A DNA stretch of 59,664 nt from a virus. Both the position numbers and the translations under genes were made by a program. Below the pieces are notes generated by a model. The model was not told where the DNA came from. It saw only the letters and a program-made list of their open reading frames with translations, and did not search any database. The DNA lies in IMG/VR virus record IMGVR_UViG_3300024581_003789, positions 1-59,664 of that record. The stretch is one strand, 5' to 3'. Shown here in pieces: positions 2,685 to 9,054 of this stretch. Positions within the stretch are counted from its first letter, which is position 1. Every line of letters begins with the position of its first letter.

Positions 2685-4625
2685 ATGGCACGCAATAAAA
2701 AAGACTTTTTAAAGCTCATTAAAGAGCAGAGAAAATCTAAAAGCAAAGAAAAATTTAGTGGTACTTTTATTGACTACTTGGAATTGGTAAAAGACAATCC
2801 AGGATCGGTAAAATTAGCCCATCGACGTCTATACGAAACTATTAATAATCGTGGCGTTGAAACGCTTGATGTTGGAAATGACGGATATCGTGATATTTTC
2901 AACGGAGACAAAATTAGAAAATATGATTACTTTGAAAAAGAATTCTTTGGTATGGAATCAGTAATCAATAAACTTATGAGATTTATGAAATCGGCAGCTT
3001 TTAAAGGTGAAGAAAGTCGCCAGGTTCTTCTCTTAATGGGTCCGGTAGGGGCAGGAAAATCAGCTCTTATTGATTCAGTTAAGCGTGCACTGGAAACTGC
3101 TGAAGACTATTACTACTTAGAAGGTTGCCCAGTGAGAGAAGAACCTCTTCATCTTTTACCTAGAAGTTTAAGAGGTGAATTTGAAGAGCTTTTGGGTGTA
3201 CATATTGAAGGTGATCTTTGTCCAGTATGTCGTCATCGATTAATGACAGAATTTGAAGGTGAATACGAAAAATTCCCAGTAAAGCAAACCGGTTTTTCTC
3301 AGCGAGGCCGAAGAGGTATCGCAGTAGTGCCACCTATGGACGCAAACTCTCAAGACGTATCAGTTTTGATTGGTACTGAAGATATTTCAAAACTAGATCT
3401 TTATCCTGAAGATGACCCACGTGTTTTGTCACTTAATGGTGCGTTTAACGTTGGTAATCGCGGTATCGTTGAGTTTGTTGAGGTATTTAAGAATGAGATT
3501 GAATTCTTACATACAATGTTAACAGCAACGCAAGAGAAACGTGTGCCTACCCCAGGTAAAAACGATATGCTTTATTTTGACGGGGTGATATTATCCCATT
3601 GTAATGAGTCAGAGTGGAACAGATTTAAATCTGAACACACTAACGAGGCTATTCTGGACAGGGTATTGAAGATTGAAGTTCCTTATGTTTTAGAATTGGA
3701 TCAAGAACAAAAGATTTACGAAAAAATTATTGGAAGATCTGACTTCCGAGGTGCACATATCGCCCCTCATACATTAAAGGTAGCATCAATGTTCTCAGTT
3801 ATGTCGCGTTTGCAAAACTCTAGAAAGTGTGACTTATTGACGAAGATGAAAATCTACAATGGTGAAGCCATTATTGAAAAAGGTCGAGTTAAGAAAGTAG
3901 ATATTCGTGACTTGAAAGCTGAAGCTAAACATGAAGGAATGGAAGGTATTTCTACTCGTTTCATTATGAAAGCTTTGGATGCAGCATTGTCAGACTCAGA
4001 TGACGGTATGATTACTCCAATCAATGTTGTTGATTCTTTGATTAAGCAAGTAAAAGAGCAAATTATTGACGAAGATGCTCAAACACGATATTTGGAAATT
4101 TTGCAAAAAATTATTCGAGAAGAGTACTTACGAATTCTTGAAACAGAAATTGCCAAAGCATTTATCACTGCTTATGAAGAACAAGCACAATCTTTGTTTG
4201 ATTCCTACTTGGATAATGCTGAATGTTATACAACTAATTCAAAAGTTAAAAACAGAATCACACGCGAAGAAACAGAACCAGATGAAAAATTCATGAGAAC
4301 AATTGAAGAAATGATTGGTGTTGTTGGTTCATCTCGTGATGGATTTAGAAATGATGTTACTGCATTTATGTTTGCAAAACTCCGTAAAGGCGAAACAGTC
4401 GATTATAAGTCTTACGGTCCTTTGAAGGAAGCAATCGAGCAATACTTGATTTCATCAGTTAAAGATATCGCAAGAATCGTAACTCGATCTAAGTCTCGTG
4501 ATGATGATCAGCGACGTAAATATTCAGATATGATTCAAACTTTAATTGAAGAATACGGTTATAATGAAGCTTCAGCTGAGGAGATCTTAACATATGCAAG
4601 CAACAATTTGTGGCGTGACTCCTAA
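2685..4625 (+). CDS. prkA: PrkA/YeaG family AAA+ serine protein kinase
   Basis: FFGME, Walker A LLLMGPVGAGKS, GCPVREEPLHL, IEGDLCPVCR, GNRGIVEFVEVFK, NEAILDR, HIAPHTL, EGMEGISTRF; AGGAG RBS. Confidence 0.95.
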   Translation: MARNKKDFLKLIKEQRKSKSKEKFSGTFIDYLELVKDNPGSVKLAHRRLYETINNRGVETLDVGNDGYRDIFNGDKIRKYDYFEKEFFGMESVINKLMRFMKSAAFKGEESRQVLLLMGPVGAGKSALIDSVKRALETAEDYYYLEGCPVREEPLHLLPRSLRGEFEELLGVHIEGDLCPVCRHRLMTEFEGEYEKFPVKQTGFSQRGRRGIAVVPPMDANSQDVSVLIGTEDISKLDLYPEDDPRVLSLNGAFNVGNRGIVEFVEVFKNEIEFLHTMLTATQEKRVPTPGKNDMLYFDGVILSHCNESEWNRFKSEHTNEAILDRVLKIEVPYVLELDQEQKIYEKIIGRSDFRGAHIAPHTLKVASMFSVMSRLQNSRKCDLLTKMKIYNGEAIIEKGRVKKVDIRDLKAEAKHEGMEGISTRFIMKALDAALSDSDDGMITPINVVDSLIKQVKEQIIDEDAQTRYLEILQKIIREEYLRILETEIAKAFITAYEEQAQSLFDSYLDNAECYTTNSKVKNRITREETEPDEKFMRTIEEMIGVVGSSRDGFRNDVTAFMFAKLRKGETVDYKSYGPLKEAIEQYLISSVKDIARIVTRSKSRDDDQRRKYSDMIQTLIEEYGYNEASAEEILTYASNNLWRDS

Positions 4626-5832
4626 AGTTGATGTATATAAAAGAGAAGTCTTAGTTGACTTTTTAAAAAAAGAAAAAGAGCATTTTTTGAACATTGCTGA
4701 TAAAGGTGCTCTTTATCAAAACAAAGCCTTGATAGAAACATCAGGGCTTAATTATTTTAATATACTACCAGTTGGAAAAATCAATACAGCTCTAAAGAAT
4801 CTTATCTTAAAAGAATACGACGATTGTGAAAAAAGATATCCCTACTTAGGAGAATATTTTATAAGCACTTTCTTTGGAGAGAAAGTCAAGACAAAAACCA
4901 ATTTAAGAAAATTTGAAAAGAGATACCAAAAAGACTTTTTGAATTCTATTTCTAATAAAGATGTAAAGATTATTATTGAATGGATGTTTGATAATGTCAA
5001 CCTTGAAAGATCGATTAACATAGACAGGCACGAAGGAAAAGATATCTGCCTGGAAAAAGAAGACAGTTTTTCTCTCAATCTATCATATGACTACGACTTC
5101 TTTAATCCGATGAATAACGTTACTTTTAGAGATTACAAATTTATCATAATCAATGGTTACATAGAGTCAGTTGGCGAAGTCCATCATTTATTTACTAAAG
5201 CAAACGAAACTAAAATCCCTTATGTTATTTTTTGCTATGGAATGTCTGAAGAAGTTAAACACAATATTATGGTCAATAATAAAAGAGGTTCTTTTGTTGT
5301 TCTACCCGTTTCACTAGATTCTAATGATGAAAACACTTTAAATATTTTGAATGATATCGCTGTTCTTCACGACGGAGATATTGTCAGCAGTGACATGGGA
5401 CAAACAATATCACAAGAGGTGAGAAAAGAGCTTAAAACAGGAAAGAAAATATCTTTTAAAGAAGGTAGAATTTATTTAGATCCTGTTGCTAGCAATGAAA
5501 AACTTGACTCACATAAAAAGTTTTTAATTAAAAGATTGGAAGATGCGCTTAATAAGCCTGACGTCAACGTTGATCCTATTAGAAATCGAGTTAAAAACTT
5601 TTCAGTTAAGAGCTTAAACATTTACGTCCCTGATGAAGTAGCCAGACACAATAGTTTCCAAAGAGACATGACTTATTGTCTAGGTTTTTTAAAAAATATT
5701 GATAAAGAATATAAAATTTTATCGATAGGGAAAAAAGATTATTATATACCAAAGGTTTTGGTTAGATACGCTGATGAAAAGCGTAAAAGCCTAGAATCTA
5801 TATTAGAAAACATAGATATAATTTTATCATAG
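4594..5832 (+). CDS. Degenerate GroEL/Cpn60-like protein (intermediate and apical domains kept, ATP-binding motif lost)
   Basis: FIIINGYIESVGEVHHLFTKANETKIPYVIFCYGMSEEVKHNIMVNNKRGSFVVLPV..ILNDIAVLHDGDIVSSDMG aligns by eye with the GroEL apical domain ([77 protein letters not shown]). No GDGTTT. Start overlaps prkA and is uncertain. Confidence 0.8.
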   Translation: MQATICGVTPKVDVYKREVLVDFLKKEKEHFLNIADKGALYQNKALIETSGLNYFNILPVGKINTALKNLILKEYDDCEKRYPYLGEYFISTFFGEKVKTKTNLRKFEKRYQKDFLNSISNKDVKIIIEWMFDNVNLERSINIDRHEGKDICLEKEDSFSLNLSYDYDFFNPMNNVTFRDYKFIIINGYIESVGEVHHLFTKANETKIPYVIFCYGMSEEVKHNIMVNNKRGSFVVLPVSLDSNDENTLNILNDIAVLHDGDIVSSDMGQTISQEVRKELKTGKKISFKEGRIYLDPVASNEKLDSHKKFLIKRLEDALNKPDVNVDPIRNRVKNFSVKSLNIYVPDEVARHNSFQRDMTYCLGFLKNIDKEYKILSIGKKDYYIPKVLVRYADEKRKSLESILENIDIILS

Positions 5833-6097: not shown

Positions 6098-6562
6098 ATG
6101 CTAGGTCAGAAACATTTAGTTGAGTGTCATTGTGTACTTCCTCTATATAAGGGGAAAGACCCAATTGTGTACCATAAGTTTACCGTTTACAGCAAAATTG
6201 ACGAAAGAGGAAGTATTATTCCTAAATATGTCAATTGCAATAACTGTGGAATCACACATCATGTATACGAAATATGTCGATCAGATATTAAGGTGGGCAA
6301 AGAAGATATTCCCTCTGTAAGATCTGTTGAAGACATATCTATTTCATTACCCGAAAGATTAGTAAAAATCTTAAAAGATAATGAAAGAGACGTTTCTGAC
6401 TATGAAATGATTGAAGATGCTTTTGAGCAAGATATATTCCCAATAAACATTATTGTGTCTAGGGAGATAATTGATGAAGAGTATCAGATAAAAATATTAG
6501 AAATTAAATCAAAAAATAGTTTTAAGATATCCTCTGAAACAATTAAAACAATTATTAGGTGA
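6098..6562 (+). CDS. Hypothetical protein, probable Zn-binding (CHC...CNNC..H...C)
   Basis: ECHC and CNNCGITHHVYEIC motifs. Confidence 0.7.
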   Translation: MLGQKHLVECHCVLPLYKGKDPIVYHKFTVYSKIDERGSIIPKYVNCNNCGITHHVYEICRSDIKVGKEDIPSVRSVEDISISLPERLVKILKDNERDVSDYEMIEDAFEQDIFPINIIVSREIIDEEYQIKILEIKSKNSFKISSETIKTIIR

Positions 6563-6837: not shown

Positions 6838-7029
6838 ATGTCGTTAAATGAAAGTTTATTAGCACAATTTGAAGAACTTAAGCTCTTGGTGGAGACTTTG
6901 CAAAGCGATGTTGTAAAGAACGCACAGGGAAACAAATCTGCAGGTATTAGAGCGCGTAAAGGATTGCGCGAAGCCAAAAAAATGGCCTCGGCAATCGTTA
7001 AAACCTCTCTAGAATCTGACAAAGCTTAA
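6838..7029 (+). CDS. Histone H1-like (Hc1 family) small DNA-binding protein
   Basis: GNKSAGIRARKGLREAKK matches the Hc1-family GNKAAGxRARK signature; strong GAGGAGG RBS. Confidence 0.8.
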   Translation: MSLNESLLAQFEELKLLVETLQSDVVKNAQGNKSAGIRARKGLREAKKMASAIVKTSLESDKA

Positions 7030-7049: not shown

Positions 7050-7298
7050 TTAAAGGCTTAGAGATGATAATTTGTCTCTAAGCTTTTTTATTGCATTCTT
7101 TTCAATTTGGCAAATTCTCATTCTTGTTACACCAAATAAATCACCTACATCTTGTAGTGTGATTTTGTTTTCATTAAAGCCCTTGTCTTTGAGAAGTAAA
7201 ACACAACAGTTGTTTGATTTACCACAATCAATCCAATACCGACATTGTGTATTTTCGCAAGATTTTTTATTCTTTTGATTATAATTAAAACATTTCAT
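7050..7298 (-). CDS. Stand-alone sigma70 region-4 HTH protein with Cys-rich N-terminus
   Basis: TLQDVGDLFGVTRMRICQIEKNAIKKLR resembles RpoD region 4.2 ([28 protein letters not shown]); six Cys in the N-terminal half; GAGGA RBS. Confidence 0.85.
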   Translation of the reverse strand: MKCFNYNQKNKKSCENTQCRYWIDCGKSNNCCVLLLKDKGFNENKITLQDVGDLFGVTRMRICQIEKNAIKKLRDKLSSLSL

Positions 7299-7326
7299 AT
7301 TATACTTTCCTCATTTGATATTTATG

Positions 7327-7355
7327 ATTATACATCGATATCTTAAAATTAACAA
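7327..7355 (-). promoter_or_regulatory. sigma70-like promoter for the sigma region-4 gene
   Basis: Minus strand TTGTTA-N17-TATAAT, about 30 nt upstream of the ATG at 7298. Confidence 0.6.
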
Positions 7356-7365
7356 AAGGATGATT

Positions 7366-8733
7366 ATGACAGATAGAAAAATATTTATTATCGACACAAG
7401 TGTTTTGTTGTACGATAAGAACTCAATCCACTCCTTTCCTGGAAATGACGTATTAATCCCTTTGGTTGTCTTAGATGAATTAGACAGATTCAAGGACAAA
7501 AAAGGTTTAATTGGCGAAAACGCAAGATACGTCAACAGGTTTTTAGATGATTTGAGAAAAGAAGGTACTTTGCATGACGGTATAGGTATCGATGGTGATC
7601 AAACAATCAAAGTTGCATTGACAGGATTTAACGAAGTACCTGCTGGATTAGATGCCAACTATGCTGACAACAAAATGATCTCTTTGGCTCTGGATGTACA
7701 GAAGAACTCAGATCAAAAGGTAACCTTAGTAACTAAGGACATTAACTTCAGAGTTAAGTGTGATTCTCTAGGAATACATTCTGAAGATTATTACAAAGAT
7801 AAATTAACAATAGCAGACGGAAAAACTTTTAAAGGTTATAGCGAAGTTGAAGCTTATGACCCGTTTATGATTGACTCTCTTTATGAATACGTTAAATCAC
7901 AAGAAAAAGACGGGGATGAAGAAAGGGAAACAGTTGAGTCGTTTTTAGCTTTGTTTGTTGAGCAACACAATCGTGATCCGTATGAAAACGAATATTTTTG
8001 CATTAAATACGAATCAAAATCATTTATTGGAAAGTACGAAGAAGGATCGATAGTAAGAGTTAGACAACCTCAAGACATGCTAGATACATTTGCACGTTTA
8101 GATATTAAGGCTAAGAATAGAGAACAACTTTATGCATTTAATGCTTTACTAGACCCATCAATGCCTTTGGTTACTATTTCTGGATTAGCCGGTAGTGGAA
8201 AAACTTTTATTGCTTTGATGGCGGCTTATTCTCTTGTTCAAGCTGGATATTATGATAGAATTGTTTTTACAAGAAATGTTCAACCTGTAGGCCGTGACAT
8301 TGGTTTCTTGCCTGGAACTGCAGAAGAAAAGATGGCACCGTGGATTGCACCAATCATGGACAACTTAAGAGTAGGACTAAAAGACAGTAATCTATCCCTA
8401 TTCAATACTTTGATGTCGCAAGGAGTTATTGAAATTGCACCGCTGTCTTATATTCGTGGAAGAACCTTTAATGACAGTATACTTATCATGGACGAAGCAC
8501 AAAATGCAACAATACATGAATTGAAAACTGTGATTACGCGAATGGGAGAAAATTCAAAAATTATTCTTCTTGGTGATGTTGATCAGATCGATACACCTTA
8601 CATTGATGCGTTGTCTAACGGTTTGACAATTGTTGCTGAAAAATTCAAAAATCAAGAATGTGCTTCACACATTGCACTTAAGAGGGGAGAAAGATCTCAT
8701 TTGAGTGCGGTGGCAGCTTCAATCTTAGGATAA
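7366..8733 (+). CDS. phoH: PIN-PhoH fusion (PhoH2/YlaK type)
   Basis: PIN: IIDTSVLL, VVLDELD, ADNKMI, LVTKDINFRVK. PhoH: GLAGSGKT, IGFLPG, YIRGRTF, MDEAQN, GDVDQID. Start moved to ATG 7366 after AAGGA. Confidence 0.92.
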   Translation: MTDRKIFIIDTSVLLYDKNSIHSFPGNDVLIPLVVLDELDRFKDKKGLIGENARYVNRFLDDLRKEGTLHDGIGIDGDQTIKVALTGFNEVPAGLDANYADNKMISLALDVQKNSDQKVTLVTKDINFRVKCDSLGIHSEDYYKDKLTIADGKTFKGYSEVEAYDPFMIDSLYEYVKSQEKDGDEERETVESFLALFVEQHNRDPYENEYFCIKYESKSFIGKYEEGSIVRVRQPQDMLDTFARLDIKAKNREQLYAFNALLDPSMPLVTISGLAGSGKTFIALMAAYSLVQAGYYDRIVFTRNVQPVGRDIGFLPGTAEEKMAPWIAPIMDNLRVGLKDSNLSLFNTLMSQGVIEIAPLSYIRGRTFNDSILIMDEAQNATIHELKTVITRMGENSKIILLGDVDQIDTPYIDALSNGLTIVAEKFKNQECASHIALKRGERSHLSAVAASILG

Positions 8734-8736
8734 AAA

Positions 8737-9054
8737 ATGAGCTTAAGAGACTTAAATAGATTTAGAAAAATATATTCTTTCATTAGAAGAAAACCATTTA
8801 ACATAACAGAGGGCAGCGTGACATACGAATCAGGAGAAGCAACTGTAACAAGTAGTGATACAGTTACAATTAATTTTACAACAGTTTTTACTTCTGCACC
8901 ACATGTAACAGCAACAGCACACGACGCTAATTCAAACGGAACTGCAAACGTCAATGCATATATCGAGTCAGTATCTTTAACATCTGTAACGATTGGTTTT
9001 TCAGCACCCTTTACAGGAAAAGTCCAATATCACGCAATTCAGTCAGCTAATTAA
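8737..9054 (+). CDS. Small fibre-associated beta protein (H-type lectin / gp53-C-like fold)
   Basis: VTINFTTVFTSAPHVTAT...SVSLTSVTI...VQYHAI pattern typical of fibre-tip domains. Confidence 0.55.
   Translation: MSLRDLNRFRKIYSFIRRKPFNITEGSVTYESGEATVTSSDTVTINFTTVFTSAPHVTATAHDANSNGTANVNAYIESVSLTSVTIGFSAPFTGKVQYHAIQSAN

Follow-up and report, generated by a model that had tools for sequence, protein, structure and literature searches.

A degenerate chaperonin homologue that lacks the GroEL nucleotide site, found in a clade of uncultured jumbo phages

Chaperonins are, to our knowledge, regarded as machines that depend strictly on ATP, and every phage chaperonin that we know to have been characterised is a full-length ATPase. 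The isolated apical domain of GroEL has ATP-independent chaperone activity in vitro, and in this form is termed a minichaperone. The jumbo-phage chaperonins EL gp146, OBP gp246 and AR9 gp228 are full-length ATPases of ~540–560 amino acids (aa) that work without a co-chaperonin (PMC7185714, PMC9598537). Here we describe a shorter relative encoded in a stretch of viral DNA of 59,664 nt (the window), which forms the first 59.7 kb of the linear 134-kb IMG/VR virus entry IMGVR_UViG_3300024581_003789, of 46% completeness by CheckV. The gene at 4594–5832 almost certainly encodes a real, conserved but degenerate homologue of the group I chaperonins. Its protein has lost the nucleotide pocket together with the helix block that makes the ring-to-ring contacts of GroEL, and what remains is an apical and an intermediate domain on a minimal equatorial base. 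The label pseudo-chaperonin is justified for this gene, and is used throughout.

The open reading frame is unbroken over 412 aa and starts 32 nt ahead of the stop codon of the preceding gene prkA (2685–4625), so that the intact frame overlapping the 3′ end of prkA noted in a preliminary description of this DNA is indeed present. The elements of the gene, in window coordinates, are these.

4594–5832, + strand: pseudo-chaperonin gene (protein P0001, 412 aa), a degenerate group I Cpn60 with three domains and a reduced equatorial base
4578–4583, + strand: ribosome-binding site GAGGAG, 10 nt 5′ of the pseudo-chaperonin ATG, within the 3′ end of prkA
4594–4917, + strand: N-terminal equatorial remnant, residues 1–108; the N-terminal strand, the stem-loop and the equivalents of helices A–C are kept
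4828–4857, + strand: degenerate phosphate-loop site, residues 79–88 (E-K-R-Y-P-Y-L-G-E-Y), at the position of GroEL GDGTTT
4918–5061, + strand: intermediate domain, N-terminal part, residues 109–156; equivalents of GroEL helices F and G
5062–5607, + strand: apical domain, residues 157–338; matches 1kid, with the motifs GEIHHL, PYVIFCYGMSEEVK, NILNDIA and GQTISQE
5608–5694, + strand: intermediate domain, C-terminal part, residues 339–367; helix M equivalent, with Y361 at the position of GroEL D398
5695–5832, + strand: C-terminal equatorial remnant, residues 368–412 and stop codon; beta-hairpin, last helix and C-terminal strand, with GroEL 410–495 absent

A phmmer search of the PDB with P0001 returned GroEL at E 6e-7, aligning query residues 121–333 with GroEL 154–368, and the protein matches phrog_5725 ('chaperonin groEL') at E 1.6e-14. 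A profile of 96 family members (profile A2) matched a GroEL-type chaperonin in the PDB at E 6.7e-29, with profile positions 42–377 aligned to GroEL 47–399. The apical and intermediate domains are in register with GroEL at ~18–24% identity. Both of the alignments quoted for these domains in the preliminary description are reproduced in the same register by hhalign of P0001 against E. coli GroEL (probability 98%, residues 118–349 to 152–385). Because hhalign, run against a single GroEL sequence, covered only the central 230 residues, the equatorial domain was mapped from the HMMER profile alignment, from MAFFT and from the structural matches. Pfam is blind to the family: P0001 has no match at E up to 1, including PF00118 (Cpn60_TCP1), none of the 96 family members matches PF00118 at E up to 0.01, and this domain was not found in the 134-kb record. 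The phrog_5725 annotation groups the family with GroEL.

The AlphaFold2 model of P0001, made with the same 96-sequence alignment, has a pLDDT of 90.2 and a pTM of 0.75. The structural comparison with GroEL that had been called for gave a match to the Cpn60 fold, with every top Foldseek match in the PDB being a GroEL or Hsp60 (E ~5e-19, probability 1.00). Measured by query TM score in Foldseek, the model is closer to the GroES-bound open conformers 6mrc, 9es0 and 8wuw (0.68–0.69) than to apo GroEL (~0.41). In an exhaustive VIA-align search the top match was 1kid, the apical domain of GroEL (Z 18.9, rmsd 3.0 Å over 184 residues), and whole chains could be aligned across model residues 10–412, namely P. 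falciparum Cpn60 (Z 18.3), EL gp146 (6tmt, Z 15.3) and OBP (6hdd, Z 12.0). From these matches it follows that all three chaperonin domains are present and that the equatorial base is shrunken. Both terminal strands and the stem-loop are present in the single-chain model, which past residue 368 consists of no more than a hairpin, a helix and a strand. The structure matches to P0001 in BFVD are full-length phage GroELs only, and the nearest ESM Atlas clusters are unnamed and 94–100% viral.

For comparison of individual residues, 127 family members were aligned with eight full-length Cpn60s (E. coli, two GenBank phage GroELs and five from related jumbo-phage contigs). In GroEL numbering, all eight controls keep T30-L-G-P33, D52, the 86–91 loop (GDGTTT, with GDGTST in one), D398, G415 and D495. 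In at least 125 of the 127 family members T30–P33 and N479/A480 are deleted. D87 is replaced by G, Y, F or N (it is Y84 in the window protein), T89–T91 by unrelated residues and D398 by Y, E, N or R (Y361 in the window protein, invariant in its close relatives), and D495 is either a gap or I, V or L. The position of D52 is ambiguous, with D present in 22 of 127 members in a region where the alignment is uncertain. The motif GDG[TS][TS] occurs in none of 130 distinct family proteins. The preliminary reading of the GDGTTT position as roughly RYPYLGE was close, since GroEL 86–91 aligns with P83-Y-L-G-E-Y of the window protein. From the residues at these positions we infer that the pseudo-chaperonin has probably lost the ability to bind and hydrolyse ATP in the manner of GroEL.

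Other parts of the protein have been reduced as well. Within residues 1–108, where T30–P33 is deleted, helices D and E are shortened; GroEL 100–135 is 52% gaps across the family, and the equivalents of R197 and E386 are lost. The C-terminal equatorial part had been described as missing, and this holds for GroEL 410–495 (82% gaps) but not for the last helix and the C-terminal strand, both of which are retained. The structural R368 is kept as R in 125 of 127 members, L237 is L in 107, and V264 is often kept. The best-conserved positions are nonetheless family-specific: E79, P83 and G86 at the old phosphate loop, each invariant in close relatives, and the motifs GEIHHL (helix H equivalent), FCYG, NILNDIA and GQTISQE.

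How widespread is the pseudo-chaperonin? At 90% identity 159 clusters were found, drawn from marine and other metagenomes on contigs of up to 237 kb, whose members are 36–64% identical to the window protein and nearly all 401–430 aa in length. An exhaustive HMMER search extended this to 828 representatives at 50% identity, 469 of them at E up to 1e-10, and barring fragments nearly all are 370–470 aa. The 173 viral loci that were fetched gave 130 distinct proteins of 303–480 aa (median 399) with the reading frame intact. A tblastn search of 50,697 records of cultured phages with P0001 and a distant member (P0197) found no member of the family; it returned just true full-length GroELs, with a groES gene adjoining where this was examined. 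No match to the first 12 kb of the window was found by megablast among cultured phages, and a pattern scan of prokaryote genome contigs with a family alignment (A3) found no cellular relatives. The carriers of the family, whose members were met here on viral contigs alone, are a clade of uncultured aquatic jumbo phages of ~240–340 kb. Our literature searches turned up neither a truncated phage GroEL nor any connection of PrkA with a chaperonin. One metagenomic protein of 2242 aa (P0202) matches the query in 19 separate stretches (E 1.6e-23, the best being to query 117–183), and could represent either a protein built of repeats or a chimera made in gene calling.

The large deletions, the loss of catalytic residues and an evolution faster than that of the neighbouring genes (the pseudo-chaperonins are 37–64% identical where the PrkA proteins are 80–93% identical) might suggest a functionless chaperonin remnant in decay. 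A decaying gene is hard to reconcile with 130 loci and hundreds of clusters in which the protein is intact at a stable ~370–470 aa, with its invariant motifs, or with a confidently predicted fold. The comparison of dN/dS proposed in the preliminary description also gave no sign of near-neutral drift: in the least saturated pairs omega is ~0.18–0.41, well below 1, compared with 0.03–0.07 for prkA, though these values are rough because synonymous sites are saturated (pS ~0.7). The sequence comparisons support purifying selection on the pseudo-chaperonin, and we find the idea of a decaying fragment hardly credible.

A full-length Cpn60 is encoded in all five related records that are at least 77% complete (G001, 100%; G009, 99%; G011, 87%; G002, 84%; G005, 77%) and in three further, less complete records; the records without one are 46–61% complete. 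The five examined (L179–L183) are of 536–584 aa, with PF00118 matches at E 1e-56 to 1e-75; the intact phosphate loop reads GDGTTT in four of them and GDGTST in the fifth, and none has a GGM tail. Examples are L179 (G001:C1:145744-147267) and L182 (G005:C1:53477-54985). The latter comes from a 237-kb marine close relative in which the pseudo-chaperonin is 48% identical to that of the window and adjoins prkA. In G001–G003 the full-length Cpn60 gene lies ~8–10 kb from yeaH-spoVR-prkA, with genes for UvdE, an AAA ATPase and a GDSL lipase in the interval; ClpP is encoded close by. Since relatives carry a full-length Cpn60, the pseudo-chaperonin is an extra, degenerate paralogue and not the sole chaperonin of the phage. 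It splits cleanly from the full-length Cpn60s in a tree (support 100), and at ~16–30% identity the family is about equally distant from the Cpn60 of the clade, from other phage GroELs and from E. coli GroEL. The absence of groES from the window, reported previously, extends to the whole 134-kb record, where no Cpn10 (PF00166) was found, and the same is true of three relatives checked, of which one is complete. Host GroES could be the partner of the pseudo-chaperonin.

In the window the pseudo-chaperonin gene comes directly after three genes that have strong matches in Pfam (yeaH/DUF444, E 1e-116; spoVR, E 1.2e-111; AAA_PrkA, E 5.4e-140, with the PrkA C-terminal domain) and are adjacent in this lineage.

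143–1315, + strand: yeaH
1263–2630, + strand: spoVR
2685–4625, + strand: prkA

The yeaH and spoVR genes overlap by 53 nt (1263–1315), and the order yeaH-spoVR-prkA is constant in every related phage locus examined, with or without a pseudo-chaperonin after it.

On this arrangement the preliminary description had built a four-component YeaH-SpoVR-PrkA-pseudoGroEL system, in which the pseudo-chaperonin would bind substrate and the PrkA AAA+ ring would supply the power. According to one report PrkA is an ATP-dependent protease (PMC9512850), which makes a substrate-presenting partner conceivable. The loci retrieved with an alignment of the close family, 22 in number, all have yeaH-spoVR-prkA upstream; in the 20 closer ones prkA overlaps the start of the gene by ~30 nt, and in the two most distant there are gaps of ~0.6–1.1 kb. 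These 22 loci share every downstream gene too, which points to shared ancestry. The wider family was scored on the 102 loci whose upstream sequence extends for 8 kb or more. Here prkA lies within 10 kb upstream in 39 and is adjacent in 28, as it is in the window, and in 17 of those the gene starts ~30 nt inside prkA, which suggests co-transcription and possibly translational coupling. The other 63 have no prkA within 10 kb, and most have a divergent glycosyltransferase gene upstream instead. Linked and unlinked states require ~3 changes over the family tree (101 labelled tips), so the linkage to prkA has been inherited, and not repeatedly selected or re-established.

Whole genomes lead to the same place. 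Although prkA occurs somewhere in most of the relatives tested, in the complete 298-kb G001 (with direct terminal repeats) it lies at ~155 kb and the pseudo-chaperonin at ~292 kb, a separation of ~136 kb, and the 340-kb G009 (99% complete) has an intact pseudo-chaperonin of 385 aa and no prkA. Conversely, the pseudo-chaperonin had no match in PrkA-bearing phages of other groups (Thermus YS40/TMA, RsoM2USA and several ~600-kb LR75xxxx metagenomic phages), and the disparity of identities noted above shows that the two proteins are not evolving in step. By the test that the preliminary description itself set for the coupling, the distribution largely refutes an obligate form of it, and the pseudo-chaperonin is very probably independent of prkA. 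A partnership with PrkA could now be lineage-specific at most, and even in that form we think it improbable.

Taken together, the explanation we favour, with a probability of about 0.55, is that this is a degenerate chaperonin, independent of prkA, that acts as a passive protein-binding module in a clade that has its own Cpn60. The jumbo-phage chaperonins that function without a co-chaperonin, and the ATP-independent activity of apical domains, make a holdase or adaptor the most economical model. The protein would bind other proteins independently of nucleotide, capturing phage (or host) polypeptides during infection and passing them on, either to the chaperonin that the phage itself encodes or to an assembly pathway. 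It may assemble as a single ring, and its conformation may be constitutively 'open'. In the window lineage co-transcription and probable translational coupling with prkA would have arisen only through a rearrangement that placed the yeaH-spoVR-prkA block upstream. The mechanism as holdase or chaperonin accessory is put forward tentatively, at less than even odds.

A number of observations weigh against the favoured explanation. The substrate-binding groove is only partly kept: L234 is replaced by H, N or D, V263 mostly by K, and F204 is often deleted. The leading motifs (GEIHHL, GQTISQE and the YPYLGD loop) have no counterpart function in GroEL, and could point to a different activity. The 'open' conformation derives from a single-chain AlphaFold model, and binding, ring formation and contact with Cpn60 are all conjectural. 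The window's own record, 46% complete, has no full-length Cpn60, and the co-occurrence of the two genes elsewhere may reflect shared ancestry within one phage clade, in which they are not adjacent.

The open form of the model raises the question of whether the protein might act on the host chaperonin, as a decoy or poison. A nucleotide-free, locked-open mimic of GroEL would sequester host GroES or join host rings, stopping protein folding in the host and leaving the phage Cpn60, which lacks a co-chaperonin, still working. This is consistent with the closeness of the model to GroES-bound conformers, with the conservation of L237 and of the equivalents of N265/R268 at the end of helix I (N228 and R231-G232), and with the possession by relatives of a full-length Cpn60 and, where checked, no Cpn10. 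The idea is weakened by the partial conservation of the groove, where the binding surface for substrate and the GroES mobile loop has diverged at the residues listed above and Y199 is variable. The equatorial interface by which the protein would mix into host rings has been lost (T30–P33, R197/E386 and the helices in 410–495), and fast evolution (37–64% identity against >80% for PrkA) would be unexpected for a mimic of the very conserved GroEL–GroES interface. We regard a decoy as a long shot. Rather more plausible, but still doubtful, is a wider possibility in which the Cpn60 without co-chaperonin and the open pseudo-chaperonin would make up a two-gene viral chaperonin system, the latter serving the former as a dedicated partner in the shape of a capturing ring, lid or hetero-oligomeric subunit, or in which the pseudo-chaperonin would be a trap for host GroES. 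If true, either would be a new way to build or subvert a chaperonin machine.

The genes that accompany the pseudo-chaperonin bear on one further alternative. Its most constant neighbour lies a short way downstream.

6098–6562, + strand: orf154, a CxC...CxxC zinc-ribbon protein

Of 113 loci, 109 have this gene no more than 5 kb downstream, and its protein has the invariant signature H..C.C...C..C..H, formed by H6/C10/C12...C47/C50/H54. The model (pLDDT 93) shows a zinc ribbon with an alpha/beta C-terminal domain. Against the PDB its best structural match was at Z 4.2, with no Foldseek match at E up to 0.001 and no sequence match. We considered orf154 as a hidden GroES-like partner, and rejected this on the basis of that model and the lack of any fold or sequence match.

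The other constant neighbours are a small helical protein, the Hc1 histone-like protein and PIN-PhoH, and there are no chaperones among them. It might be supposed from this company that the chaperonin fold has been exapted for a non-chaperone role, either scaffolding or regulating the early or middle genes nearby, or binding a small ligand or metal. The positions conserved most strongly (E79/P83/G86, E195/H197/H198/C214 and G269–Q274) are indeed those specific to the family and not the functional residues of GroEL, and the CCT-like domain of PIKfyve, matched at Z 7.1, provides a precedent. The neighbours are, however, syntenic across the whole clade and thus carry little functional signal, nothing points to any particular alternative activity, and the best-preserved part of the protein is the apical domain (Z 18.9). 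Exaptation of this kind seems to us unlikely, and a passive protein-binding module is preferred.

Some features of the window may be recorded in their own right. It has a GC content of ~34%, and nearly all of its genes are on the + strand; genes for baseplate wedge, PIN-PhoH, primase and glycosyltransferase mark it as that of a large tailed phage. The family profile scores best in the PDB against an ancestral Fibrobacteres-Chlorobi-Bacteroidetes chaperonin (E 6.7e-29 versus 1.4e-20 for E. coli GroEL), and this, with the GC content, faintly suggests a host or donor of Bacteroidota type. A scan for promoters and terminators was uninformative, with 44 promoter-like sites against 35 expected. The Hc1 protein, of 63 aa and resembling chlamydial histone H1 (6838–7029; PF07432, E 1.3e-12), ends a tightly packed run of genes on the + strand. 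It is followed at 7050–7298 by one of the very few genes on the − strand, encoding a free-standing protein like sigma region 4 with a Cys-rich N-terminus; the gene in the corresponding place on another family contig matches Sigma70_r4 in Pfam. The PIN domain fused to a PhoH ATPase is at 7315–8733 (PF13638 and PF02562), and its closest cultured PhoH homologues, at ~31–35% identity, are in Rak2/GAP32-type and other jumbo phages. At 8737–9054 a protein of 105 aa has a weak H-type lectin match (E 1e-4, just under the Pfam cut-off), and could be the tip module of a fibre or adhesin.

The pseudo-chaperonins show that a chaperonin fold without its nucleotide site and inter-ring base persists under selection in hundreds of viral lineages, beside a normal chaperonin. 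They are a natural system for asking what can be done by apical and intermediate domains in the absence of ATP, and how protein folding is organised in jumbo phages that lack a co-chaperonin. Current annotation either misses the family or mislabels its members as a working chaperonin. A tempting but unsupported tie to the poorly understood PrkA/YeaH/SpoVR module is also removed.

With GroEL and the Cpn60 family (PF00118) the pseudo-chaperonin shares the three-domain fold and the order of the domains, and it conserves R368, the NILNDIA/AMLQDIA motif and NxxRG. It differs in being ~135 residues shorter, in lacking the GGM tail and any Pfam match, and in the absence of the nucleotide pocket, of 410–495, of part of 100–135 and of the R197/E386 pair. 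Like EL gp146 and the chaperonins of OBP and AR9 it is encoded by a phage, has the same fold and is, in the records checked, without a co-chaperonin gene. Those proteins are full-length ATPases, whereas in this clade their counterpart is the separate Cpn60 gene, and the pseudo-chaperonin is an additional, ATPase-dead paralogue. The GroEL minichaperones (1kid, 1jon) include its best structural match (1kid), but they are engineered fragments, whereas this is a natural protein with an intermediate domain, a small equatorial base and a partly altered groove. In the PIKfyve CCT-like domain (7k2v) the chaperonin fold has likewise been reused outside the canonical folding cycle, and the chaperonin-like proteins BBS6, BBS10 and BBS12 are eukaryotic examples of non-folding reuse. 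These differ from the phage family in that they are derived from group II chaperonins, are eukaryotic, and function within larger proteins or complexes, with no sequence relation to the pseudo-chaperonin beyond the fold. Set beside all of these, what is new here is a family of degenerate phage chaperonins, currently unannotated, that in the more complete genomes is co-resident with an ATP-competent Cpn60.

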